This document shows, piece after piece, positions 31,140-60,507 of a stretch of DNA of 60,507 nucleotides (position 1 is the first letter of the stretch; each line of letters opens with the position of its first letter). The position numbers were made by a program, and so were the translations under genes. The notes below the pieces were generated by a model that saw nothing but the letters and a program-made list of their open reading frames with translations, searched no databases and had not been told where the DNA came from. This stretch comes from Oscillospiraceae bacterium (GTDB lineage: Bacteria; Bacillota; Clostridia; Oscillospirales; Ruminococcaceae), in contig CADAPX010000001.1 in NCBI GenBank assembly GCA_902789925.1, forward strand, positions 1 to 60,507, in the 5' to 3' direction.

Positions 31140-31281
31140 CTAAAAACTAAAACAGGACAAATTTTATAAAAAACTTGATTTTATTATTTATAGATATATA
31201 ATAATAAGTAGGAGTTATTTTTGTAGTGTTGATTTTTTGGTTAGTGAGATTATATTCTGATTAGACGGAGGAGTGTTGAAA

Positions 31282-34017
31282 ATGAGTTTGGTTGATAAAG
31301 TTTTTGGGTCATACAGTAAAAAAGAAATAAAAAGAATAAAGCCAACTTTGAAAAAAATTTTGGGCATGGAAGAAAAATATAAAAAATTTTCTGAATCTGA
31401 GCTTAAAGGCCAGACCAAATTGTTTAAAAAGCGTTTGGCCGATGGGGAGTCGCTTGATGACATATTACCTGAAGTTTTTGCTGTTTGTCGCGAGGCAGCA
31501 TCCAGAGTTTTGAGCATGCGCCATTTTGAGGTTCAACTTATGGCTGGAATCATTTTGCATCAGGGGCGCATTGCTGAAATGAAGACGGGCCAAGGAAAAA
31601 CATTGGTTGCGACTTTGCCGGTGTATCTTAATGCGTTAACTGGAAAAGGGGCTCATGTAATAACTGTTAATGACTATTTGGCTAAGCGTGACTCCGACCT
31701 CATGGGCAAGGTATATAGATATTTGGGCCTGAGCGTTGGCGTTATACTCAATGGAATGGACAACGACGAGCGCCGCAAAGCATATTCTTGCGACGTGACA
31801 TATGCAACAAATAATGAGGTCGGATTTGACTATCTTCGCGACAATATGTGTATATATAAAGAACAAAAAGTTCAAAGGCCTTTCAATTTTTGCATCGTCG
31901 ACGAGGTTGACTCAGTTTTGATTGACGAGGCCAGGACGCCGCTTATTATTTCAGGCCCGGGTGAAAAATCAACGGATATGTATGTTCATGCTGACAATTT
32001 TGTTAAAACTTTGAAAATGTATAAAGTCAGGGAGCTTGATGATAAAGAAGAACACGACGATGTTGACGGCGACTATATCGTTGATGAAAAGGGAAAAACT
32101 GCGACTTTGAATCCTTCCGGAGTTAAAAAAGCTGAAGAATATTTTAACGTTAAAAACTTGATGGATGCTGAAAATATCACACTTTTACACCATATTAATC
32201 AAGCAATTAAAGCGCATGGCGTTATGCAAAAAGACACAGATTATGTCGTTAAAGACGGCGAGGTTTTGATTGTTGACGAATTCACAGGAAGAATAATGTT
32301 TGGGCGCAGGTATAACGAAGGGCTCCACCAAGCTCTCGAAGCCAAAGAGGGCGTTGACATCGCAAGCGAATCCAAAACTCTTGCCAGCATAACCTTCCAG
32401 AATTTGTTTAGGATATATAAAAAGCTGTCTGGAATGACGGGAACTGCCCTGACTGAGGAGGGAGAATTCAGGGAAATATATAAACTGGACGTTGTTGAAA
32501 TTCCGCCAAACAAGCCTGTCATTCGAAAAGACCATGACTATGTTATTTATAGGACAGAGCAAGCAAAATTTCGCGCTGTCATCGACCAAATAGTTGAATC
32601 CCATAAAAAAGGACAACCTGTTTTGGTTGGAACGGTTTCCATAGACAAATCTGAGCGTCTCAGCGCTCTTTTAAAAGAAAAGGGCATTGAGCACACTGTC
32701 CTTAACGCTAAACACCACGAACGAGAGGCTCATATCATTGCTCAGGCGGGCAAAAAAGGCGCAGTCACAATAGCAACTAATATGGCTGGGCGCGGAACCG
32801 ACATCATTCTTGGCGGTAATGCGGAATATATGGCAAAAGAAGAGATGAGAAAAAGGGGATACTATGAAGACCTTATAAACGAAGCAACCGCATATGGAGA
32901 CACTGATGATCGAGAAATTTTGGAAGCCAGGGAAACTTTTAAAAGCCTAAACTCAGAATATAAAAAGGTAATTTCTGAAAAAGCAAAAGAGGTTAAAGCG
33001 GCTGGAGGCTTGTTTATTATTGGAACTGAGCGCCATGAATCCCGAAGAATAGACAATCAGCTGCGGGGGCGTTCAGGTCGTCAAGGAGACCCTGGAGAAA
33101 GTCGGTTCTATCTGTCTTTAGAAGACAATCTGATGAGGCTGTATGGCGGGGCGAGAATTGACAAAATGATGAAATTTTTAAAAGTTGATGAAGATATGCC
33201 GATAAAAAGCAGGATGCTGACTAATGTTATAGATAATGCTCAGGCTAAGGTTGAGGCGCAAAATTTTGCGATACGTAAAAGCGTTTTAAAATTTGACGAC
33301 GTCATGAACTCCCAGCGTGAGATAATATATAAAGAACGTGGACAAGTTCTTGAAGGAAAAGATATGAGAAACAGCACTGTCCACATGATGACTGAAGCCA
33401 TTGCGGAGGTTGTTGACATATATATTCCAGACCATGTTTCCTATGAACATTGGAACCTTGAAGGCTTGCGGGACTATTTTAGTTATATTTTGGACGAAAA
33501 TGACTTAAAGTATAGCAAAGGCGATCTTGCGGGCGTTAAGAAGGAAGAATTGATTGAGGCGATTCGCAAAAAGGCCATGAGCATATATGAACAAAAGGAG
33601 AAGATGGTTGGCCAGGAGCGCATGCGTGAGCTGGAAAGGGTTGTTATTTTGCGGACGGTTGATTCTAAATGGACCAACCACATCGACAACATGGAGGAAC
33701 TTCGCCGGGGAATCTATTTGCGGTCGTATGCTCAAAAAGACCCTGTCATTGAATATCGAATCGAAGGCTTTGCCATGTTTGATGCGATGGTTTCAAGCAT
33801 TAAAGAAGAAGTCACAAGGCTCATCTTGACGATTCACATCAGAACTGAGCAGGAAATCAAAAGAGAGGAAGTCAATAAAATTCCGGTTCCTGTCAAATAT
33901 AAAGAGAGCGCGGCGGGTCAGGAAAGGCGTCCGATTCGAAATCTTCACAACGTTGGACGAAACGATCCTTGTCCATGTGGCAGCGGTAAAAAATATAAGC
34001 ATTGCTGTGGTAAATAA
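31282..34017 (+). CDS. secA: preprotein translocase ATPase SecA
   Basis: [14 protein letters not shown] Walker [20 protein letters not shown], and the C-terminal zinc motif [14 protein letters not shown]. The ATG at 31282 is 9 nt after ggagga. Confidence 0.97.
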
Positions 34018-34053
34018 CCAACCATAATTAAAATTATAAACACCTGTTGATAA

Positions 34054-34094
34054 AAAAGATGTCAGTGAAAATAGATTTGTTGGCATCTTTTTTT
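34054..34094 (+). terminator. intrinsic terminator after secA
   Basis: aaaagatgtca (34054-34064) pairs with tggcatctttt (34081-34091), followed by a T-run. Confidence 0.6.
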
Positions 34095-34147
34095 ATTTAG
34101 ACACATATTTTTATTGAATGCGTGATTTATCTTAAGGAGAAATAAAT

Positions 34148-35467
34148 ATGAATAAATTCTATGGGAAAATCGAATTATTAGGTAAAGAATATAGTTATGT
34201 TGTTATAGGATATGAGATGATAATAATTGACTCTAAAGAAGATATATTAAAAACGCATAAAATTGCTCAAATAACCAACAGATGGCTCAAAACCAAAATA
34301 AATGAAGGAAAAAGATTAATAGTTAAATTATCCTATAAACACGCGGGAGAAAATGCGCTTATTATGAATATTATCGCTTTTTTTAGCATTTTTGATATGT
34401 CAAAATTTTTTATTGAGTTTAAACAATATGAAATTCCAAAAAGAAAAGATGAGATCCACAAAATAACATATGTCAGCGACGTTTTGGACTATTTTTTCAG
34501 GCCGAAGGGATATAAGGATTTTGTTTCAAATTTGATTGAATCATTCCACGATGATGTGAAACTGAAAAAAGGAAATTTCAAACATTATTCGTTTAATTAT
34601 AATAATAAGAATTTTGTCATGTATTTTGGAATTTTGAATGAATATAAAAGGGATAATAGATTTGTTTTTGACATACATAGTCTGTTAATTATTGAATGTG
34701 ACGAAAATATTGAACTTGACGAGGTGTATAAAATTTCTGTGTATGTTAAAACTTTTTTGGCGCTTGTCTCAAACAAACGAAAAGTCTACTTTGATGAGAT
34801 AAAAATAAACCGACCCTATGGAGGAAATGAATATAAACCCGGCTATTTTTATTTAAATCAAGGCAAAAAAGAAAACATTAATTACTGTCATACATTAGAA
34901 TATAATGATGTTGAAGACAATATTCAAAAAATTATGGATAAAATAATTGAAAATGATGTTTTATTTATTCTTTTATTTCAGTATGACACCAACTATATTA
35001 AAACTATTGATATAATAAATATATGCGCCGCATTTGAATGTCAATTTAAAGAAACATATTCTGAATTTAAGTGTCAATATCGAAAGATTTATCCTGAATT
35101 TAAATGTCGATTTTTTAAAACTTGCGCCAGATTAAACAAAAATAAAGTCTCATTGCGGCAAAAAATAGAATATGCTCTGGCAGATTTTGAAAAATTTTAT
35201 CAGCAAACCTCAACCCAGCATGTTAAGATAGAATATGATTTTAAGGAGGATTATAAAGAAATGCCCAGCAGGATTGTTTACGCAAGGAACATGCTGGCCC
35301 ACGGGGACAAAAAGACTGATAATAAAAATTTTCAAATAAACGATGATGTTTTAACAGACACCATTTTATTGCGTGCCATTATATATTTTATGATTTTTAA
35401 ATCTATTGACATGAATCCAACTAATATTATGAAATGCATTAGAAAATTTACTAGATTTCATTTCTGA
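34148..35467 (+). CDS. HEPN-motif protein with a large uncharacterised N-terminal domain (ApeA-like abortive-infection candidate)
   Basis: 439-aa ORF with a good SD (aaggaga, 7 nt, ATG). C-terminal YARNMLAHGD fits the HEPN R-N-x3-H active-site motif. I recognise no housekeeping motif. The gene is visibly AT-richer than secA and corC. Confidence 0.55.
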   Translation: MNKFYGKIELLGKEYSYVVIGYEMIIIDSKEDILKTHKIAQITNRWLKTKINEGKRLIVKLSYKHAGENALIMNIIAFFSIFDMSKFFIEFKQYEIPKRKDEIHKITYVSDVLDYFFRPKGYKDFVSNLIESFHDDVKLKKGNFKHYSFNYNNKNFVMYFGILNEYKRDNRFVFDIHSLLIIECDENIELDEVYKISVYVKTFLALVSNKRKVYFDEIKINRPYGGNEYKPGYFYLNQGKKENINYCHTLEYNDVEDNIQKIMDKIIENDVLFILLFQYDTNYIKTIDIINICAAFECQFKETYSEFKCQYRKIYPEFKCRFFKTCARLNKNKVSLRQKIEYALADFEKFYQQTSTQHVKIEYDFKEDYKEMPSRIVYARNMLAHGDKKTDNKNFQINDDVLTDTILLRAIIYFMIFKSIDMNPTNIMKCIRKFTRFHF

Positions 35468-35554
35468 TAAAAATCAAAAACAGGAGCCTATTTTTATCAT
35501 GCGTTTTGTGTATTTTGCACTAAATTTGACTTTAAATATTGTGCATAATTCACC

Positions 35555-35583
35555 TTGACATTAGAAATTTTATGAGTTATCAT
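35555..35583 (+). promoter_or_regulatory. promoter of the corC-like gene
   Basis: ttgaca (35555-35560), 17-nt spacer, tatcat (35578-35583). Confidence 0.55.
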
Positions 35584-35622
35584 ATATATATGGGTATGAA
35601 TTTCTAGGAGGAGAATTTTAAC

Positions 35623-36477
35623 ATGGACACGGATGGCACTAGTAGGGGCGGCTCGCCTGGTCGAATTTCTAGGCTTTTTGGCTCAAAGCCGCCGGATAAA
35701 ATAACAGAAGACGACATAATGTTTTTGGTTGAAACTGGCGAAGATGAAGGCATTTTGCTTAGCAGCCAGTCTAAAATGATAGAAAATGTTTTGAAATTTC
35801 GAAAAATAGCGGTTTATGAAATTATGACCCATAGAGTTGACATAGAAGCTGTTGAGGAACATGCTAAAATTGCTGATGTTTTGAAAATTGGCGTTGAAAA
35901 TGGTTTTTCTAGGATACCCGTTTATAAAGAAGACATAGACAACATAATTGGAGCTGTCTATGTTAAAGATTTGTTGGGGCTGATTGGCAAGGAAAATGTT
36001 GAAGACAAGCCGATCGGTTCATTCATTCGCGAATTGCCATATATTCCTGAAACTATAAAGTGTTTTGACCTGTTTAGGCAGTTCACAGAAAATCACCAGC
36101 ACTTTGCCGTCGTTGTTGATAAATACGGCGGAACATCTGGCATTGTGACTATGGAAGACATATTAGAAGCGATCGTTGGGAAAATCCAGGATGAATATGA
36201 CGATGAACATGACGATATAACAAAAGTAAACCAAACAACCTTCATTATTCAGGGGCACGCGGCTTTGGATCGCGTTTCCGAGGCGTTGGATGTTCGGCTT
36301 GAAAGCGACTCGGATTTTGACACTATTGGAGGCTTTTTGATCAATGCTTTAGGAAGAATCCCAGACGAAAATGAACACCCCGTTTTAAAATATGGCGGGA
36401 TTGAGTTCACGGTTTTGGTTGTCCAGAAGCGTCACATCGCAAAGGTTAGGGCTGTTAAATTAGTTAATCAATGCTAG
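35623..36477 (+). CDS. CBS-pair + CorC/HlyC C-terminal domain protein (CorC/YbeX-like, no DUF21 membrane domain)
   Basis: [32 protein letters not shown] is the linker plus first CBS pattern of the TlyC/CorC family. The C-terminal transporter-associated domain is also present. The length matches soluble CorC. Confidence 0.8.
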
Positions 36478-38832: not shown

Positions 38833-38910
38833 AAATTTGGGAGGTTTTTAATGTTAACTTGAGATTTACATAAATTAACCATGATTTTTTTAAGGAAGAG
38901 GGGGTTTTTT

Positions 38911-41013
38911 ATGAACAAAATTTTAAACGATTTTATTGAAAAACTTAGAACCAACCAAAAGCTCCAATATGAATTCAAAAAATGCAAAACCCTTAAACAA
39001 AGCTATGACAGGTTTATGAAAGGCAAATGCAGCTATGAGGAATATGAGGATTTTTTTGAGGATTTAATTAAAAGGAAGGCCCAGCTCTCAGATCAAGACC
39101 TTGAGCAGGTTTGCGGCGGAATTTCCTTAAAGAAAATGCTCGCTCCAATAACTATTGTTACTATGCTGACTGGGTCTGGCGCGATTTTGGCGAATAATGT
39201 TATGTCTTCTGGACAAAATTCCATTTTTTCTTCATTTAGCCAAAGCGTCGAAAAAAACAATGTCGAAACCATTTGCGATGGGCAAATTCAATTTTCGGCT
39301 GGTAATGATTCAATCGTTTTAAAAGGGGTTGACGAGCAAAATCCAGCCAAACTTGACATATCAAACGACCTCTCAAGCAAATTAAAATTTCACAAAAACA
39401 AAACATTAAAAATTGGCGCAGGAATTGAATCCATAAAACTTGAGGACCAGGACATCGACATCTCATGCGCTTTGGATTTAAAATCTGTCGACCTGGGCGA
39501 AAACAATTCGAAATATAAAATAGTTGACTCTAGCCTCTGGGCGATTGATGAAGACGGAAATTTATCAAAAAATCTGGGATTTATAAATAAATCAATAATA
39601 TATGACTTTTGCTTTGACAGGATTGATGAACTTCCAAAACTTGAAGGAAATCAAGAGTTTGAAAATCTGGGGCAGGAAGAAGATTTTAGGGCGTTTCTGG
39701 CTCTTCCAAACCGCGATCAGCTCAAAGAAAAGAGAGAATATGTGATATATAAACCAAATCAGAAAAAAACTGATAAAGATGATTCGTTAACAAATAAAAC
39801 AACAATAAACGAAAAGAAGGTTTATGATGATATACAAAATGTTGTTTGGGAACTTACGGAAAAGGTTGAAAAGCGAACTCCTCCAGACGGAATGAGTGAA
39901 AATGATATACAATCCGGAATAAAAGAAAATAAATATAGCAAAAATTACAAAATGAATAAATATTGGCGAATTGCAAAGGCTATATATCGCTGGGTTGCAA
40001 AAAATATTTCATATGACGACGACAGCCTTGTTGAATCCTGTCGAAAGCCCCAGGATCCGCTTTTTGTTTTTCAAAGCAAAACTGGGGTATGCGCCGGATT
40101 TTCGAATTTGACGAATTTGATGATGCGCATGGCGGGAATTCCAAGCCTTAAAGTTTCAACGCTTAAAAACCAAAACTCCGACAAAACAGTTCATGGATAC
40201 ACCGCTATATATTTGCCAAGCAACCAAAATTCAAATGACGCTTTGGGCGACTCTGTTTTTAAAAGCAAAGAAGCTGGATGGGCGCTGCTTGACTCAACTT
40301 GGGGGGCAACTGGCGATTCAACAAAAAAAGAAGTCGAAAGTAAATCAAACATCAACAAAAAAGATAGGCTAAAAGAAAATTTTCCTGGGTTTTACAGTCA
40401 AAATTCAAGCCTCAAAGATGACAACAAAAAAATCCTAGACTTTAAGTCGCATAAAATATCTCATTTTAGCTCTGGTTTGAGCAATGTTCAAGATAGTCCA
40501 TTATATAATAAAGATTTCACAAATTTTTCAAGAGGAAATTTGGAGTTCACCTTGGGAGGAAGCGTTCAAGAGCCGACGATATGCATAAAAGCTAGAAAGG
40601 GCCAGCAAATTAAAAACCTCAAAATTTCAGACATTCCTCAAAGTCTTTTAAAATATGGCTATTCAATCGAAATCACAAACGGCATTGAATCTTTGACAAT
40701 TGACAAAGATGATGATATTAAATTGAAAATTTCTGATTCATGTCAACTAAAAACTGCTAACGCCAGCCCCGAAAATAAAAAATATTTTGCAGATGAGATT
40801 GCTATTTGGGAAAAAAATTCCAACAATGAACCCGAAAAGCTTGTTAAAGTTTTCAGGCAAAATGGAGTTTGCGGAAAAAATCAAAACCAAGTCAAATATT
40901 CAATTGAAGAAGACAAAATTTCCCTGGAAGGAAAAAATATTAACACTCAAAAGTTGCCGCATTCATTAAAATTGATCAGCCAAAAATTCAATAAGCCCTT
41001 CCAAACAAACTAA
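38911..41013 (+). CDS. transglutaminase-like cysteine protease-fold surface protein with N-terminal Nif11-like double-glycine leader domain and LRR (BspA-like) segments
   Basis: The first 70 aa (MNKILNDFIEKLRTNQKLQYEF...LSDQDLEQVCGG) have a Nif11-type leader pattern ending in GG, followed by a hydrophobic segment. Transglutaminase-core Cys/His/Asp are in KTGVCAGFSNL, VHGYTAIYL and ALLDSTWG. The ATG at 38911 follows gaagaggggg. Confidence 0.75.
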   Translation: MNKILNDFIEKLRTNQKLQYEFKKCKTLKQSYDRFMKGKCSYEEYEDFFEDLIKRKAQLSDQDLEQVCGGISLKKMLAPITIVTMLTGSGAILANNVMSSGQNSIFSSFSQSVEKNNVETICDGQIQFSAGNDSIVLKGVDEQNPAKLDISNDLSSKLKFHKNKTLKIGAGIESIKLEDQDIDISCALDLKSVDLGENNSKYKIVDSSLWAIDEDGNLSKNLGFINKSIIYDFCFDRIDELPKLEGNQEFENLGQEEDFRAFLALPNRDQLKEKREYVIYKPNQKKTDKDDSLTNKTTINEKKVYDDIQNVVWELTEKVEKRTPPDGMSENDIQSGIKENKYSKNYKMNKYWRIAKAIYRWVAKNISYDDDSLVESCRKPQDPLFVFQSKTGVCAGFSNLTNLMMRMAGIPSLKVSTLKNQNSDKTVHGYTAIYLPSNQNSNDALGDSVFKSKEAGWALLDSTWGATGDSTKKEVESKSNINKKDRLKENFPGFYSQNSSLKDDNKKILDFKSHKISHFSSGLSNVQDSPLYNKDFTNFSRGNLEFTLGGSVQEPTICIKARKGQQIKNLKISDIPQSLLKYGYSIEITNGIESLTIDKDDDIKLKISDSCQLKTANASPENKKYFADEIAIWEKNSNNEPEKLVKVFRQNGVCGKNQNQVKYSIEEDKISLEGKNINTQKLPHSLKLISQKFNKPFQTN

Positions 41014-49952: not shown

Positions 49953-51848
49953 ATGGACAATTTTAGAATAAAAACCATAAAAAAATGTATAGAATGGCTT
50001 GCTGTGGTTGCTTTGATTCTTGGATCATTTAATGACTTTGGCCTGAAAGCTTTTGCAAATTTAGAGCAGGAAGAAAATTTTTGCATGGATAAAATGAACA
50101 ATTTGCCAATAGACGAGGATTTTTTAACTGAAGCGACAAAATTGCCAAATGTTGATGAGTTAGATGAATCCAGGATTGAACCGATTGTGCACATGAACGA
50201 TACAGTCGAGCAAGTCGTTCTAAACGAAAAAAGTTGTTATGATAAAATATTTCAAGAAGTTGAAAAATTAAAGCAAACAGCGAAAAATTCTCAATCCTAT
50301 TTAAAAAAAGAAGATGCGTGTTTACCAGAAAAAATGCGCCTAGCCAATGAAATATATCGTTGGGTTGCAACAAATATTCGAGCTGATCATGAATCTTTTG
50401 AATCTGTCAAAAATGATGAACAAGTTTATGTCAAGCCCCAGGATGAATATTTTGTTTATGATCAACGGCTTGGCTTTTGTGAGGGATATGCACGGCTTGT
50501 GAACTTGATGATGCGAATGGCCGATATACCCTGCATCTATGTTGCGTCGATTAACGGGCCAGCTGAAAATTATGGCCATGCATTCAACGCTGTGTATATT
50601 GAAGACACTTGCGCAGATCGAAAGGGATGGACTTTGCTGGACGCGGCGAATGCTTGGCCCGGAGGCTTTGACAGATACAAATCACTCACTAAATTTTTGT
50701 TTGGGGAAGCTTTTTTTAATCTAGACTTTTTTAATATTATAATGCCGAAAAATGATGATTATGTTAAAAATATCTATTATTTACTGGAAATTTCTTGTGA
50801 ACAATGTCATAATCCATCTTCAGAATTTATTGAGGAAAAAAACAAAAAAATTGAAAATGTTTTGAAAATTTTAAATAGTGACGAAAAATATGAAAATTGT
50901 TCACATTTTAAAGAAATTAAATTTTTCAATCATTCTGGATATTTATATTTTAATTATAAAACCGACGTCACCATGATAAAAGCCAAAGAGATTCGAAATG
51001 AAGAAGAGGAAGGTTTTTTAAAAAACGATTTTAGTTGCTTCGAAACTAAATTAAGAGAATATAATGAAAATTTCATGCTAAATTCAGATATTATATATAA
51101 CCTTTTATTATTAACTGGGTTGGAAAAACTCGATTTAAACCAGGAAAATATGGCAGAATTGAAAAATATCAAATTTGGATTTGAAGAATCTTTAAGGGAT
51201 GGACATGAATTTTTATATGCATATTGTGGGAAAAAACCAAATGCTGTGGCTAATAATATAAACGAAACTGATCAAAAAAATCAAAATAGTTATTATTTTA
51301 AAGAAAAGTTTGAAGAATTTTTCCCTGCGTTTTATAATTCCAAACAATCTTTTAAAGATGCTAATATGAGAATTATTAAAAAAAGTTTTCATAAAATATC
51401 CACTTTTGAAATTGATATAGGGAATATAAACACGCCAATTTTGCTTGGAGAATCCCACGAAGGGAATGCTCGGTTGGACCTCAATTGTCAGGTTGACATG
51501 GACATATCGTGCTTTTCGTCTTTGTCGCCAGATGAGCAAAAAAAGCAGATAGACGAGATCAAACAGACGCTTAAAATGTTAAATGTTTTTGATGATCGCA
51601 TAGAGTGTGGTGGTTTATTTCAAATAAATAATAAATATGGAATAACAGTGAATATTCCCGGATGTATTGAAAAATTAAAGCTTCACGGCAATATATCTAT
51701 CGATATAGGAGCTTCTGATGAATTGATTGAAATAGACACGACTGATTCGGAAATATATGACTTTGAGGATGGAATTTTATATGAAAAATTTGATGGCAAA
51801 CGGGGAAAGGAGATCGCAAGAACAAAGAAAAATCCGGTGAAAATTTAA
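49953..51848 (+). CDS. secreted transglutaminase-like cysteine protease-fold protein, paralog 2
   Basis: Signal peptide ending KAFA. The triad is in LGFCEGYARL, YGHAFNAVYI and TLLDAANAW. It shares the NFCMDKMNNLP, LPEKMRLANEIYRWVA, FFPAFY and SHEGNA blocks with paralog 3. Confidence 0.8.
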   Translation: MDNFRIKTIKKCIEWLAVVALILGSFNDFGLKAFANLEQEENFCMDKMNNLPIDEDFLTEATKLPNVDELDESRIEPIVHMNDTVEQVVLNEKSCYDKIFQEVEKLKQTAKNSQSYLKKEDACLPEKMRLANEIYRWVATNIRADHESFESVKNDEQVYVKPQDEYFVYDQRLGFCEGYARLVNLMMRMADIPCIYVASINGPAENYGHAFNAVYIEDTCADRKGWTLLDAANAWPGGFDRYKSLTKFLFGEAFFNLDFFNIIMPKNDDYVKNIYYLLEISCEQCHNPSSEFIEEKNKKIENVLKILNSDEKYENCSHFKEIKFFNHSGYLYFNYKTDVTMIKAKEIRNEEEEGFLKNDFSCFETKLREYNENFMLNSDIIYNLLLLTGLEKLDLNQENMAELKNIKFGFEESLRDGHEFLYAYCGKKPNAVANNINETDQKNQNSYYFKEKFEEFFPAFYNSKQSFKDANMRIIKKSFHKISTFEIDIGNINTPILLGESHEGNARLDLNCQVDMDISCFSSLSPDEQKKQIDEIKQTLKMLNVFDDRIECGGLFQINNKYGITVNIPGCIEKLKLHGNISIDIGASDELIEIDTTDSEIYDFEDGILYEKFDGKRGKEIARTKKNPVKI

Positions 51849-52038: not shown

Positions 52039-52123
52039 ATAAATGATGATACTTTTAAATAGTATTATCTAAGCGAAATTTTATATTGTTCATCAAATAT
52101 TAACTGCAAAGGATGTGATTATC

Positions 52124-54550
52124 ATGAGTAATTCGATGACAAAATTAAAAAAAGGCGTTTTAAAAAAATCTCTAGCCTTATTTTTGGCGGTTTTAATGTG
52201 CATAACTTGCTTAACCGTTTCGGTTTTTGCCGGTGCGGAGGGGGAAGAAATGTTTTGCAATGACAAAATGAACAGTTTGCCAACTAGAAGCAGAGCGTTT
52301 TTTTCAGAAACCACCAAATTGCCCGACGTGAATCGGCTGAATCCAACGCGCCTTGAAACTGTTGTCCACTCTAACGGTTCAAGAGAATATATTTTCGTGG
52401 ATGAGCAGGCTTGCTACAAAAAAATGGTTGAAGTTGTCAAAAATCTGCAACAAAGCGTTAGAAACGGCAATGATTTAAAAGCTTGGGGGGAGGATTATTA
52501 TAAATATGTTGGTTTACCGGAAAAAATGCGTTTGGCAGATGCTATTTACCGATGGGTTGCCGAAAATATACTTTATGACTTTGAAACATATGATATTGTC
52601 GACAAAGACGCAAACGGCAGCCAGGCAACATGGAAACCACAAGATGCATATTTTGTTTTTAAAACGAAAAAAGGCGTTTGTGAGGGATACGCAAGGCTTG
52701 CAAATTTAATGATGCGTATCGCCGGCATACCGTGTATGTATGTTTCCAGTATTTGTGGAAAAGATGATTACTGCGCCCACGCATTTAATGCTGTTTATAT
52801 TAAGGATGATGTGAATGGAAGGCAAGGCTGGACGCTTGTTGACCCAACATGGGCTTCTCCAAACGGATCAGATGGAAACAATCCAAACGCCAGGAAAACC
52901 ATTTCTGGAGTGACAAAATTTGCAAAAGGTTGCTTTAATGTTTTTAAAAGAAATGATAATTATTTAAAAGAACTTTATAATAATTTCGCAATTTATGCTA
53001 ATCAAATGGCGGATATGGGCTGTGATAGAATGGCTGTTCAACTAAACAGAGTTTCGTCAACAATTTTGAATAATTTAAATCAACAATACCCAGACGGTTC
53101 ACACTTTCAAAAAATCCAGTTCTATAACGCAAATGGATCTTTACGCGTTCAATATCAAGCGAATATAAAAGCTCAGGATATGAAAAAATATGACGCTAAT
53201 ATGTTAAAATCTTGCGCGGATGAATTGATGGGAAAATCCGAAAAGAGTTTTTGTGTGTGGCCAACAGGACAAGCAAATTTAGTTTTAAGGGACGTAAATT
53301 TTCATGGACTCTGGTTCACAAATTCTTGTTTTGAAAGAATAAACAACCCTGACCCTTTTCAAAAAGATAAAGCTAAACAGTATCTGGCAACGCTTAAAAT
53401 TATATGTCATAATATTGTTCAGAAACATTTAAAAAATATTGCAAATGCTTGGACACCTCAAAATGCTTTAAAACAATTGAATGATGAAATAAATTCAAGA
53501 CTAAATGCTTTAAACAATGCGTATGGTGACATCACCGGATTTAAACATTTAACCTTCAATTTAAAACGTGAAACAAACCCGGTTTATGGGCAAAACAGGC
53601 GTTATAATGTTTTAACGTTAAAATGTGAAACTGCGTTAGATGAAAGCGAAATCAGGAATCGATTGGATGAAAGTTTTTCAAATGATACTGAGTTTTTGAA
53701 AGAGCAAAAAGCAAAGGAAGATCAAAAGTTCTATAAAGAATTTTTCCCAGCATTCTATCAACCAGATAAATCAATTGAGCATGCTAATAAAAAGGTTATT
53801 AAACATCTATATCACAAACTGTTTGCATTTGAATTTTCACACGAATTTTGGGATCAAAAAATAAACTTTCCGCGCCTTAAAGAAACTTCTCATGAAGGAA
53901 ATGCTCAAATAGAGCCCGCTGCTCCTAAAGATGAGAATAAACCATATTATGTTCCGCAAGAACTTAAAAAATATGGTTTGGAAGTTGTCATTCCGTGTAA
54001 TGTTAAAATTCTGATCCTCACGGGAGATGAGCGTGTGAATTTTGATGATGCGTTGGGCTTGCAGGAAGTTGGCGGAGTATCCACATACTATATTTTAAAG
54101 GATGGCAATGTGTATGACCAAAACGGAACGCTGATTTTTGGAAGAGTCAAAGATGATAATTATGGAGGTTACTATAACTATAATAATTATACATATGACA
54201 ATAATACTTACAATTATACATATGATAATAATACTTACAATTATACAAATGACAATAACAACAACAATTATACATATGATAATAACACCTATAATAATTA
54301 TAATACATATGACAGCAATACATATAGCTGTGGCATTAAAGCCAAAAAGAAAAAACAACAAAAGCGCTATATTTGCGCTAAAAGCAAAAATTCACAAAAA
54401 CAAAGTGTTTGCGCTAAAAGCAAAAATTCACAAAAACAAAGTGTCTGCGCTAAAAGCAAAAATTTACAAAAACAAAGTGTCTGCGCTAAAAGCAAAAATT
54501 CACAAAAAGCTAAAAGTAAAAATTCACAAAAACAAAGTGTTTGCAGATAA
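52124..54550 (+). CDS. secreted transglutaminase-like cysteine protease-fold protein, paralog 3, with Asn/Tyr-rich and Cys/Lys-rich C-terminal repeats
   Basis: Signal peptide ending SVFA. The triad is in KGVCEGYARL, CAHAFNAVYI and TLVDPTWAS. The C-terminus is YNYNNYTYDNNTYNYTYDNNTYNY... followed by (CAKSKNSQKQSV)n. Confidence 0.8.
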   Translation: MSNSMTKLKKGVLKKSLALFLAVLMCITCLTVSVFAGAEGEEMFCNDKMNSLPTRSRAFFSETTKLPDVNRLNPTRLETVVHSNGSREYIFVDEQACYKKMVEVVKNLQQSVRNGNDLKAWGEDYYKYVGLPEKMRLADAIYRWVAENILYDFETYDIVDKDANGSQATWKPQDAYFVFKTKKGVCEGYARLANLMMRIAGIPCMYVSSICGKDDYCAHAFNAVYIKDDVNGRQGWTLVDPTWASPNGSDGNNPNARKTISGVTKFAKGCFNVFKRNDNYLKELYNNFAIYANQMADMGCDRMAVQLNRVSSTILNNLNQQYPDGSHFQKIQFYNANGSLRVQYQANIKAQDMKKYDANMLKSCADELMGKSEKSFCVWPTGQANLVLRDVNFHGLWFTNSCFERINNPDPFQKDKAKQYLATLKIICHNIVQKHLKNIANAWTPQNALKQLNDEINSRLNALNNAYGDITGFKHLTFNLKRETNPVYGQNRRYNVLTLKCETALDESEIRNRLDESFSNDTEFLKEQKAKEDQKFYKEFFPAFYQPDKSIEHANKKVIKHLYHKLFAFEFSHEFWDQKINFPRLKETSHEGNAQIEPAAPKDENKPYYVPQELKKYGLEVVIPCNVKILILTGDERVNFDDALGLQEVGGVSTYYILKDGNVYDQNGTLIFGRVKDDNYGGYYNYNNYTYDNNTYNYTYDNNTYNYTNDNNNNNYTYDNNTYNNYNTYDSNTYSCGIKAKKKKQQKRYICAKSKNSQKQSVCAKSKNSQKQSVCAKSKNLQKQSVCAKSKNSQKAKSKNSQKQSVCR
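54169..54326 (+). repeat. imperfect 27-nt coding repeats (YNYTYDNNT units)
   Basis: The acaattatacatatgataataatactt unit is reiterated with variation. All other frames are open because of the low complexity. Confidence 0.8.
54374..54547 (+). repeat. 36-nt coding tandem repeat, about 4.8 copies (CAKSKNSQKQSV)
   Basis: tgcgctaaaagcaaaaattcacaaaaacaaagtgt(t/c) starts at 54374, 54410, 54446 and 54482. The last unit is rearranged. Confidence 0.9.
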
Positions 54551-58325: not shown

Positions 58326-58646
58326 ATGAATAAAGTAACAGATGCTGAGTATGAGGTTATGAAAGCGGTTTGAAAAAAGCCGTGGAGCAAAACGACCGTT
58401 AAAACTTTGATTTCGCGGCTTGCTTCCAAAGGGGCCTTAAAGATCGATAAAGCCGCGAGCAGTGTATATAAATATAAAGCCAACATTTCAGAGGACGAAT
58501 ATAAAAATCAAGAGAGCGAAAATTTAATTGGAAAATTGTTTAACGGCTCAATAAATGAAATGCTGTTAAATTTCACAAAATCCAAGAAACTTTCAAAGCA
58601 AGAATTGGAAGAATTGATAAAATTAGTGGGTGAAGAGGAAAAATGA
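58326..58646 (+). pseudogene. blaI: BlaI/MecI/CopY-family repressor, disrupted (in-frame TGA plus wHTH deletion)
   Basis: It reads MNKVTDAEYEVMKAV-TGA-KKPWSKTTVKTLISRLASKGALK...LLNFTKSKKLSKQELEELIKL. The TGA at 58371-58373 sits where the family has its conserved Trp (EVMxxxW). About 17 residues between that Trp and the W-S-x-K-T-V-K-T-L helix are missing. Confidence 0.65.
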
Positions 58647-59767
58647 TGGGGTGTTTTGTTGTAAAAATTGCTTGGATGTCCTTGGTTTCGTCCATGTTGG
58701 GCTTGATGATTTTGGGGATAAGAAAGATTAATAAAAAAATGCCTATACAATTAATTTCAATGTTTTGGCTAATATTTTTAGCATTTTTGATAATACCGTT
58801 TCAATTTGAAAATATTCATAATAATCTGAAAATAACTCAACCAATTGGCAAAATCAGAGAAAACGTTTTGACAAGAATTGAGATTCAAAGCCAAAGCCCG
58901 GAGTCAATAAACCTTTGGAATATAGCGTTTTTTGCTCATTTGATTGTTTTTTCAATCCTGTGTTTAAAAGATAGCTGCGCCTATATCATTCTAAAATATA
59001 AGATTAAAAATAAAAAAATTGAGCTGGGCCCAGAAAATTTGAAATTATTCGACATAGCAAAAGAAAAATTAAATTTTAAAAGAAAAGTCGACCTAATATG
59101 TCAAGACAGCATTCTAACGCCGTCAACTGTTGGGATATTCAGGCCCAAGATTTTGATTTCTAAAAAATTTTTGGCCCTGTCTGAAAAAGAGCAGGAATTC
59201 ATCTTCCTCCACGAGCTCATGCATATAAAAAAATCTGACAATATTAAATATTTTTTGATAAATATACTAAAAAATTTTTACTGGTTTAACCCGATGATAA
59301 ATTTTTTGACAAGGAGGCTTAAAGAAGACATTGAAATATTAACGGATAAATTGGTAATAAAATATGTTGAAATTAAAAAATATTTGATATTAATATTAAA
59401 AATTTCACAGTTCGAAGCGTCAAATGGCGGGGCATTTCCATCGTTTGCCGCTGACAAAAAAATTTTAGAAAGAAGGATTAAAATCGTGAAAAAAGAAAGA
59501 AAATTAAGCCTAAAAGTTATATCTTTATTTGCAGCATCTATATGTACAACTTTATTAAGTGTTAAATTAAAAGGTAAATCTTTCGATTCCAATAATTTTT
59601 TTGTTTCTTCAGAAATATTAATTCTTCCTGGACTTCCAGAACTTTCCATTTTATTAGCAATTAGAACGTCACTCCCAAAAATATCATATCTAACAACAGA
59701 ACTTCCGATAATTCCCGCAATAACAGTACCTGTATGGATTCCAATTCTCATATCTAATAATTCATAA
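58643..59767 (+). pseudogene. blaR1: BlaR1/MecR1-like M56 peptidase-domain membrane protein, probably truncated near 59.5 kb
   Basis: TM segments, then the HExxH motif in FIFLHELMHIKKSDN. ATGA overlap with blaI. Recognisable family sequence ends about ...ILERRIKIVKKE. The remaining open frame is antisense to the cyclase gene. Confidence 0.6.
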
Positions 59768-60507
59768 TTAACTCTTTTTCTTACATCTCTAATTATATTT
59801 ATCATTTCTTCTCCCATTTTACATACATTTTTAGCTTCTTCATAATAATTTCTTTCATTCATTGAAACTTTTCCATTAAATCCCATAACAACATAACAAT
59901 CTCCTATAGTATGAACTTTATAAACATGACATGCCTTTGTTGCATGATCAAAATTTTTAAATAGTTCCATAAGCATTTTTACGACTTCTACTGGTTCATG
60001 ACAATTACCAAAATCGGTATATCTAACTATATCTGCGAATAACATTGTAACACTTTCTAGAACATCTGCAACTGGGATATCATCTTTCATATTTTGTACG
60101 ACATGTAATGGCATTAAATTAAATAGCATTTTTTCTGTGTCAACTAATGTTTTACTCTCTTTTTGATTTGCCAGAAAAATTGTTGTCATATCAAAATATA
60201 GTATTAAAATATATATTAGTTTAATGACTGATATTGTTATTAAAAATATATTATATTTTTTAATCAACCATTCATCCCTGTTTGTAACTATATCAACTAT
60301 ATATACAACAATATGTAAAGCAATATTTATTGTGATTTGAAGATAATTTAATATACCACAGGCTTCAATTCCTGTCAAAATAACTATTTCTTCCACTGCC
60401 ATATTTAATAAATTATATTCATCTATATGACTATTAAAAATAACATTATTTATTGTTATACCTAAATATAAAATTGTAAAATAAATAAACATAAATAATG
60501 GATAATA
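59278..60507 (-). CDS. membrane-anchored class III adenylate/guanylate cyclase, 5' partial (open to the window edge); true 3' end uncertain (about 59.5-59.6 kb)
   Basis: Catalytic-core motifs VTMLFADIVRYTDF, VHTIGDCYVVMG, MRIGIHTGTVIAGIIG and YDIFGSDVLIANKMESSG are preceded by hydrophobic segments. The last about 77 codons of the ORF (59278-59511) are antisense to blaR1 and probably not genuine. Confidence 0.7.
   Translation of the reverse strand, partial: YYPLFMFIYFTILYLGITINNVIFNSHIDEYNLLNMAVEEIVILTGIEACGILNYLQITINIALHIVVYIVDIVTNRDEWLIKKYNIFLITISVIKLIYILILYFDMTTIFLANQKESKTLVDTEKMLFNLMPLHVVQNMKDDIPVADVLESVTMLFADIVRYTDFGNCHEPVEVVKMLMELFKNFDHATKACHVYKVHTIGDCYVVMGFNGKVSMNERNYYEEAKNVCKMGEEMINIIRDVRKRVNYELLDMRIGIHTGTVIAGIIGSSVVRYDIFGSDVLIANKMESSGSPGRINISEETKKLLESKDLPFNLTLNKVVHIDAANKDITFRLNFLSFFTILILLSKIFLSAANDGNAPPFDASNCEIFNINIKYFLISTYFITNLSVNISMSSLSLLVKKFIIGLNQ

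Follow-up and report, generated by a model that had tools for sequence, protein, structure and literature searches.

A candidate single-chain immune effector with an ApeA-type HEPN domain encoded between secA and corC in rumen Oscillospiraceae

Here, we have analysed a stretch of 60,507 nucleotides from an Oscillospiraceae bacterium (GenBank assembly GCA_902789925.1, contig CADAPX010000001.1; hereafter the window), in which a lone open reading frame (ORF) encoding 439 residues lies between secA and corC. An earlier note, made from the sequence alone, had described this ORF as an inserted AT-rich islet and proposed it as an ApeA-like defence candidate. Our results favour the view that the product of this ORF is an ApeA-type immune effector made of a single chain, in which a HEPN ribonuclease (RNase) domain is joined to an unrelated beta-rich N-terminal domain, and that the gene came in on a cassette and was then retained under selection. 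It is very likely that the protein has an ApeA-type HEPN domain. That it is, or was, an immune effector is probable, with clearly less confidence.

The C-terminal half and its HEPN domain

The ORF occupies 34148..35467 on the + strand, exactly where the earlier note had placed it, starting with ATG and with the stop codon within these coordinates. Its product is divided as follows:

34148..34882, + strand: N-terminal beta-rich domain (residues 1-245), a putative sensor or regulatory domain
34883..35464, + strand: all-helical C-terminal domain (residues 246-439), which holds the HEPN_Apea match
35027..35047, + strand: helix-H1 motif AAFECQF (residues 294-300)
35057..35122, + strand: clade-specific shortened H1-H2 insert, two 33-nt units (YSEFKCQYRKI / YPEFKCRFFKT)
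35285..35302, + strand: predicted catalytic Rx4H motif (R380-N-M-L-A-H385, then invariant G386)

That the C-terminal half belongs to the HEPN clan came from the match of residues 313-423 to the Pfam family HEPN_Apea (PF18739; 31.9 bits, E = 2.1e-7, profile positions 34-133 of 136). The curated gathering threshold of this family is 24.4 bits, and the profile check proposed in the earlier note thus came out positive. The same model matches 25 of 32 family members at E <= 0.01, with a best E of 8e-10, and two other HEPN-clan families are cross-matched by single family members.

The active-site signature that the earlier note had read near the C-terminus lies in SRIVYARNMLAHGDKK (residues 374-389), where R380, N381 and H385 are encoded at 35285-35302. 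By itself the pattern R-[NHD]-x3-H is not rare, as we estimate the chance of finding it in 439 residues at a few per cent. The match is meaningful because it is invariant across the family: R380, H385 and G386 are unchanged among 32 aligned full-length relatives, with identity down to 17%, and likewise in an alignment of 43 sequences. In both alignments F296 in the upstream helix is invariant and E297 nearly so.

The AlphaFold2 model (pTM 0.79, pLDDT 76) is all-helical in its C-terminal half, with helices at residues 252-268, 287-303, 336-354, 369-385, 399-419 and 424-435, in keeping with the helix-prone segments expected around the motif. The Rx4H motif is positioned at the C-terminal end of helix 369-385, and a domain-only model built with a deeper alignment agrees. 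When the C-terminal domain was compared with the PDB by Foldseek, AF_0298, HepT, TTHA0048, Csm6', AbiV and YutE were among the top matches, and HEPN proteins made up most of the top 17 fold matches among 350,000 chains. We take this enrichment as qualitative support for a HEPN fold of the predicted structure.

One could argue that the domain is some other helical bundle with a coincidental RNxxxH, and that the Pfam match is a borderline false positive. No structural match is significant, the search of PDB sequences with the family profile came back empty, and the Pfam match spans just profile positions 34-133. We consider this very improbable, since R, H and G are invariant, 25 out of 32 independent members reach the Pfam model or come close to it, two cross-match HEPN-clan families, and the top 17 fold matches are mostly HEPN proteins.

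One part of the domain differs from that of other members. In the window clade and in P0002, the insert between H1 and H2 is 17 residues shorter than elsewhere in the family and contains a small repeat. This is the internal near-duplication seen in the earlier note; at the DNA level it consists of two units spaced 33 nt (at 35057 and 35090) that share 24 of 33 bases, or 19 of 22 over the first 22 nt, and it is common to the whole window clade. Residues 311-333 of this insert have pLDDT < 50 and form the lowest-confidence stretch of both models.

The N-terminal half

In the AlphaFold2 model, residues 1-245 are mainly beta strands plus a helix at 190-208. This half has no match in Pfam, NCBIfam, PHROG, PADLOC or PDB sequences. 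Outside Pfam, even the complete protein drew a blank in each of these collections, and for PDB sequences so did the family profile. None of the Pfam N-terminal models matched the window protein or its 32 relatives, even at E <= 10, and whole-chain Foldseek searches of the PDB and BFVD gave nothing meaningful (TM about 0.1). The earlier impression that the N-terminal part is unrecognisable therefore stands for the first ~245 residues.

The gene, its signals and its composition

The ORF is the only gene between secA (31273..34017, 914 aa), whose product ends with a SEC-C motif, and corC (35623..36477). Its flanks of 130 bp and 155 bp are non-coding, and its start is 131 nt past the secA stop. 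The signals around it are:

33976..34017, + strand: last 42 nt of secA (13 codons and the stop), encoding the second half of the SEC-C zinc motif
34052-34098, + strand: secA terminator-like hairpin and T-run (18-bp stem at 34052-34093), between secA and the islet gene
34134-34139, + strand: Shine-Dalgarno AAGGAG, 8 nt before the ATG, read from the sequence and kept in the sister species
35555-35583, + strand: corC promoter-like site TTGACA-17-TATCAT (11/12 consensus), the right-hand islet boundary

All three signals named in the earlier note, the secA terminator, the gene's own Shine-Dalgarno sequence and the corC promoter, were recovered. The hairpin folds with dG -14.6 kcal/mol (z = -2.85 versus shuffles) and is also kept in contigs L011, L013 and L014 of close relatives; a consensus scanner overlooked it merely since its loop or stem exceeds the limits of the scanner. 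The corC promoter-like site lies inside a 55-nt stretch that is identical across all four carriers. We found no convincing dedicated promoter for the ApeA-like gene, the sole candidate being a 9/12 match at 34080-34109.

The gene is more AT-rich than its neighbours, as had been noticed. Its GC content is 27.3% (GC3 26.6%), against 42.5% (41.4%) for secA and 41.1% (40.4%) for corC, and it is the lowest among the 44 window genes (z = -3.4; window average 39%). Homologs elsewhere are found in hosts of 21-28% GC, where the composition of the gene matches its surroundings. This points to a low-GC donor for the window gene.

Size and distribution of the family

When 1.84 billion representative proteins were scanned exhaustively with HMMER, just 41 related clusters came up, nearly all of 440-480 aa, aligning end to end and sharing the same layout. 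In a collection of 5.8 billion proteins 16-18 clusters were found, to which the profile search contributed just two members. The sole name given to the family by any source is "hypothetical protein". The most populous cluster, P0099/P0004, has 75 members and is 55% identical to the window protein. A neighbour-joining tree gives the window clade a long branch and an insecure position, so the tree is unreliable for polarising the history of the family.

Putative integrative modules at the end of secA in the closest relatives

In the closest subfamilies, the ApeA-like gene is part of a module in which a tyrosine integrase, the ApeA-like gene and a displaced in-frame secA 3' end follow in this order. 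The integrase is an intact 318-aa protein in P0005 (L009/L010) and a stub in P0003 (L012), each followed by the ApeA-like gene and, 205-235 nt further on, a displaced secA end. In the P0099/P0004 contigs L155, L158 and L159, secA is followed by a class-Ib tRNA synthetase, a split integrase, the ApeA-like gene and an ABC-F ATPase. The integrases of L009, L012 and L155, each encoded immediately before the ApeA-like gene, are orthologous, with 52-64% identity, and have diverged about as much as the ApeA-like proteins.

At the P0099/P0004 loci, the final 42 nt of secA are repeated in frame ~229 nt past the ApeA-like stop, within a 37-codon ORF, and subsequent blocks are also closed by further copies. 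The 42-nt block recurs in this way after ApeA-like genes in L009, L012 and L154-L159, where displaced ends are found 200-235 nt downstream of the gene across modules and are preceded by ATAAATAC-type repeats. Displaced ends number 11 in 128 kb of family loci versus 0 in 1.34 Mb of unrelated loci. A different integrase/relaxase element is inserted in L154, L156 and L157, and in L154 the match to L155, the allele without this interruption, is restored at exactly 44 nt ahead of the secA stop. As the SecA of the P0099/P0004 hosts is only 42% identical to the window SecA, the placement after secA is not inherited synteny. These observations suggest that recombination of the modules takes place at the SEC-C coding end of secA, that secA is restored in the process, that the modules accrete in tandem, and that the ApeA-like gene is the cargo between int and attR. 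In the window, 33976..34017 is the genuine secA end and the equivalent of the attachment site in these modules.

Integrative elements that target and restore the 3' ends of conserved genes are known at tRNA/tmRNA genes, guaA and rlmH. The modules of the relatives resemble them in carrying cargo between a tyrosine integrase and a displaced in-frame target end with arm-like repeats, and in accreting in tandem at one site. They differ in that the target is the SEC-C coding end of secA and that several array units are single-gene blocks without an integrase; the window itself has neither integrase nor displaced end. We found no literature report of secA as an integration site.

The arrays at the secA 3' end occur in hosts of ~25% GC, with blocks of 1.3-4.5 kb that are each closed by a displaced 42-nt secA end:

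L154 5100-14098; L155 5182-12680; L156-L159 likewise; L009 3333-4692; L008 1560-2916: tandem arrays

Several array blocks consist of one cargo gene without an integrase, which gives the arrays an integron-like look. Their cargo includes an ABC-F ATPase, a 302-aa protein with a methyltransferase, a 306-aa protein of no recognised type, YunG and a SUKH immunity protein. Two subfamilies share a conserved non-coding stretch (L155 9333-9420, L012 1925-2005) that begins directly behind the stop codon of the ApeA-like gene and reads TTTGCACATTTTATAAAAT ... GGTGAACGGATGTGGnCAAnGTCnAC ... GTCCACAGTAG. It looks like an outward promoter with a small hairpin, or like recombinase or excisionase binding sites; TGTCCAC recurs close to other att copies.

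P0014 (L008 178-1608) presented itself as a SecA fusion and was rejected. Its first ~250 ApeA-like residues, whose DNA is 99% identical to L155, are joined to a SecA C-terminus at a shared 'YDD', coverage of L008 is 2.3x, and the two halves differ in best match. Because the SecA part is unmatched to the secA of L155 at the DNA level, P0014 is probably a chimeric assembly.

Neighbourhoods of distant relatives

Distant members of the family (39-47% identity) are found in other surroundings. In L001/L002 the gene lies in an element with two serine recombinases, adjoined by Abi_2, RE_ApaLI and an EC042_2821-type HEPN gene. It lies between Fic and Cas9-Cas1-Cas2 in L005, and adjoins a MutH-like nuclease and a DNA methylase in L007. 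A disrupted member in L153 (7421-8750, in pieces of 137 aa and 249 aa) sits amid TIR, a resolvase, a MutH-like nuclease/methylase and SIR2; these surroundings are clearly a defence island, and the copy shows that members of the family do decay. Such defence-island or mobile contexts agree with the defence role proposed in the earlier note, and it is from context that a defence function of the window gene is suggested.

No partner gene is conserved across contexts, as the neighbours vary everywhere except for the integrase of the mobile modules, and no MNT nucleotidyltransferase antitoxin gene is found beside the window gene or in any homolog context. In four contigs (L001 7621-7959, also L002-L004) the P0012 copy is preceded at a distance of 42 nt by a DUF6508 gene, and a Macro-DUF6508 fusion precedes the P0007 copy by 6 kb (L005 1166-1990); DUF6508 may be a recurrent neighbour, or its proximity coincidental. 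In L007 (3730-4683) and L153 (8790-9743), a 317-aa protein without a Pfam match is encoded on the same strand, 40 nt after the ApeA-like gene. It could be a partner specific to the P0011/P0016 subfamily, and it is absent from the window.

The window locus in sister species and its origin

The best matches of CorC are from two metagenome-assembled genomes, RUG12519 and RUG14392, of a rumen Ruminococcaceae/Oscillospiraceae lineage. Both GTDB species have the ApeA-like gene at this position, and it is likewise present in Logan contig L011 (99%) and in the ENA contigs L150 (CorC 88%) and L151 (CorC 99%), the last two being found by a CorC homolog search with contig look-ups. An intact ORF is known from three species and is seen in contigs L011, L013 and L014, and 3' fragments are seen in L150 and L151. 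The CorC genome scan that gave the two further carrier species also showed that secA is not beside corC in remoter relatives; a metagenome scan revealed no close relative, its best match being 44%.

The ApeA-like gene has a dN/dS of 0.15-0.22, and its dS is comparable to that of the flanking genes. At the protein level it diverges faster, being 89.6% identical in L014, compared with 98.6% for SecA. Taken together, the shared site and the dN/dS values suggest a single acquisition before the species split, followed by purifying selection.

In the next relatives (CorC 77-79% identical), the corC-NUDIX-deaminase block is kept, with a MscS channel, a glycogen phosphorylase and a GH77 enzyme upstream and no secA. 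As the genes upstream of corC differ, synteny breaks exactly at the islet. The NUDIX genes after the secA arrays and after corC are merely 34% identical, hence no orthology argument can be made from them. The inserted islet of the earlier note thus stands in its foreign composition and its synteny break, but it is not a recent insertion, as the gene is at the same site in every sampled close relative. Compared across relatives, the secA-corC interval holds the gene in all close ones and lacks it beyond the clade. None of the three outcomes that the earlier note had named as fatal to its proposal was found, namely no HEPN fold in structure prediction, R and H not conserved among homologs, or the gene at this position in all relatives with a housekeeping-type phylogeny; on the first, the predicted fold agrees with HEPN in qualitative terms.

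The modules targeting secA in the closest subfamilies would explain why the window gene follows secA, and we consider it somewhat more probable than the contrary that the window gene is a decayed secA-end cassette. As neither an integrase nor a displaced end is present in the window, we infer the route of integration from position and relatives alone. The series of integrases, from the intact one of L009 through the split one of L155 and the stub of L012 to none in the window, is consistent with progressive domestication. By Smith-Waterman alignment, 35468-35622 resembles the att copies no better than shuffles do in the window, L013, L014 and L150.

It is conceivable that what was retained is an inactive or decaying remnant, whose HEPN activity was lost through the 17-aa deletion, the small duplication and a D-to-A change beside the catalytic histidine. 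The rearrangement is clade-specific and falls in the lowest-confidence part of both models, and disrupted copies occur elsewhere, such as that in L153. We give little credence to this reading, as the deletion affects a variable insert outside the core helices, R380, H385, G386, F296 and E297 are kept, the ORF is intact wherever it is readable in full, and dN/dS is well below 1. Because the changes in the insert and at the alanine spare the invariant positions and selection is purifying, inactivation of the HEPN domain is unlikely.

Alternatively, the gene could have become a domesticated RNase with a housekeeping role in RNA processing or stress that is unrelated to immunity. Every sampled relative with a CorC identity of at least 88% has it at this position, its dS matches that of its neighbours, its dN/dS is similar to that of corC and the NUDIX gene, and no clear promoter separates it from secA upstream. 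Yet the family is extremely sparse and patchy, the gene is absent outside the window clade, its composition is still foreign, and the protein diverges faster than SecA (89.6% versus 98.6% in L014). A housekeeping role is in our judgement about as improbable as a decaying remnant.

Comparison with ApeA and other HEPN systems

ApeA is an anti-phage protein, represented by Ec1ApeA and Ec2ApeA (Gao et al. 2020, as cited in bioRxiv 10.64898/2026.01.26.701840; PADLOC PDLC02157), and in canonical ApeA the activity against phage depends on the HEPN arginine. Characterised ApeA proteins have ~580-600 aa, are predominantly alpha-helical with N-terminal, Mid and split HEPN_ApeA domains, and assemble into doughnut-shaped decamers or dodecamers. 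They cut tRNA anticodon loops once a ligand is bound in a pocket to which both the HEPN and the N-terminal domain contribute; Ec2ApeA responds in this way to a 5'-phosphorylated deoxydinucleotide (bioRxiv 10.64898/2026.01.26.701840). Direct, non-abortive cleavage of single-stranded RNA phage genomes by ApeA has also been described (bioRxiv 10.64898/2026.03.20.713152).

The window protein is like ApeA in being encoded by a single gene, in having a large N-terminal region and a C-terminal HEPN_Apea domain, in its Rx4H-type motif, which in the model ends a helix that may be the third of the core as in ApeA, in the A-x-E of H1 (AAFE in the window protein, IALE in ApeA), and in belonging to a family found in defence or mobile contexts. 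The sole local resemblance is at the start of the HEPN domain, which reads ICAAFE[CS] in the window family and WIALE[CS] in canonical ApeA (sequences from bioRxiv 10.64898/2026.01.26.701840). Unlike ApeA, it has 439 aa and is about 150 aa shorter, its N-terminal half is beta-rich whereas the canonical N-terminal and Mid domains are alpha-helical, and its HEPN domain is more compact, with 83 residues from E297 to R380 compared with about 130 in Ec1ApeA.

The PADLOC model of ApeA matches neither the window protein (E <= 10) nor the 32 relatives, so the PADLOC check proposed in the earlier note came out negative. As a positive control, 399-residue truncations of Ec1ApeA and Ec2ApeA gave E-values of 2e-278 and 4e-11, respectively. 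Aligning the family profile with six canonical ApeA proteins (residues 1-400) by hhalign gave a probability of 0.1%. The ApeA-like label of the earlier note is thus apt for the HEPN_Apea domain and the general layout, but does not extend to the PADLOC model or to the unrelated N-terminal half. The window protein is outside the ApeA family as defined by current detection models, and is best described as a known effector domain joined to an unrelated sensor domain in a compact protein.

An ApeA-NTD1 domain of ~300 aa, mostly of beta strands with conserved aromatics and fused to an Apea-type HEPN domain, was described by Anantharaman et al. 2013 (PMC3710099). The architecture of the window protein, a beta-rich N-terminal half with HEPN_Apea, is similar when compared by description only (PMC3710099). 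In contrast to ApeA-NTD1 proteins, the window protein and its 32 relatives match no Pfam N-terminal model. From its modelled structure, the N-terminal half could be of the ApeA-NTD1 kind.

The top structural neighbours, HepT (of HepT-MntA), AF_0298, TTHA0048 and the HEPN domains of AbiV and Csm6, share an Rx4-6H motif with the window protein, the matches being non-significant (E >= 1.6). Unlike HepT-type minimal toxins, the window gene has no MNT antitoxin or conserved partner, and its protein bears a large extra N-terminal domain.

Proposed function

By analogy only, the window protein would cleave RNA through R380 and H385 following N-terminal sensing. The protein may be kept inactive, probably as a HEPN-mediated dimer, until an infection cue is sensed by the N-terminal domain, alone or jointly with the HEPN domain. 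The composite HEPN site would then cut RNA, and phage replication would be halted, with or without growth arrest of the cell. That the RNA in question is tRNA is possible but doubtful. As for its history, a small tyrosine-integrase module inserting at the final 42 nt of secA would have brought in the gene as its cargo, from a low-GC donor. Integrase and displaced end would subsequently have been lost, and purifying selection would have preserved the cargo gene while a rumen genus of Oscillospiraceae/Ruminococcaceae split into at least four species.

As its closest subfamilies place the gene in the classic cargo slot between int and attR, and as HEPN domains are common as toxin modules (PMC3710099), the gene could instead be a selfish toxin of the integrative module, used for addiction (post-segregational killing) or for exclusion of rivals, of which the window copy is a leftover. 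No antitoxin-like partner is conserved in any context, distant members are in defence islands without an integrase module, and in at least four species purifying selection has kept the gene after the loss of its integrase, which would be unexpected for a pure addiction module. We consider this explanation unlikely, if less so than a housekeeping role.

Several observations weigh against an immune effector of cassette origin. No empty site was found in relatives by the CorC genome scan, the metagenome scan, or the CorC homolog search with contig look-ups; tblastn with integrase fragments found no integrase remnant in the window (nothing below E = 0.2); and a regex search found no displaced secA end after 35467. 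The gene is in every sampled close relative, as a domesticated non-defence gene would be. No homolog was found in annotated phages or plasmids by tblastn, or in a scan of IMG/VR. The PADLOC ApeA model does not recognise the family, and the best Foldseek match of the HEPN domain is non-significant (E = 1.6, TM 0.28/0.38). The H1-H2 insert shortened by 17 aa, and the alanine of the window clade where most relatives have aspartate in RNxL[D]HG, could each alter the activity.

A wider reading of function and family spread is more tentative, and we would put it below even chances. In it, the family would be an unrecognised class of single-protein HEPN effectors, with a beta-rich sensor of new fold and a trigger other than that of canonical ApeA. 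Its genes would be carried by miniature integrase cassettes at the SEC-C codons of secA and gathered in integron-like arrays, and the window copy would have become a stable host gene after loss of the integrase.

Other features of the window

Three paralogous large proteins with transglutaminase-like cores are encoded within 16 kb (38881-41013, 49953-51848 and 52115-54550), the first of which is truncated or variable in L014. The lowest-GC patch lies within 58643-60492, with 26% over 1.3 kb at ~59150. Here, two convergent ORFs overlap at their tails by 490 nt, a BlaR1-type M56 peptidase (58643-59767, + strand) and an adenylate/guanylate cyclase (59278-60492, - strand). The + strand holds nearly all genes from 6.8 to 36.9 kb. 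No tRNA genes and no Rfam families at gathering threshold were found across the 60.5 kb window.

Implications

As PADLOC misses the family and its members are named only "hypothetical protein", it has been overlooked in the defence annotation of low-GC Firmicutes and rumen bacteria. If the protein is active, it would indicate that effectors of the ApeA type accept more than one kind of sensor, and the family, represented here by a compact protein of 439 aa, would be a favourable case for discovering a new infection trigger. The last 42 nt of secA may be a broadly conserved integration hotspot with tandem arrays of cassettes which, if true, would account for the variable cargo that follows secA in distant Firmicutes.

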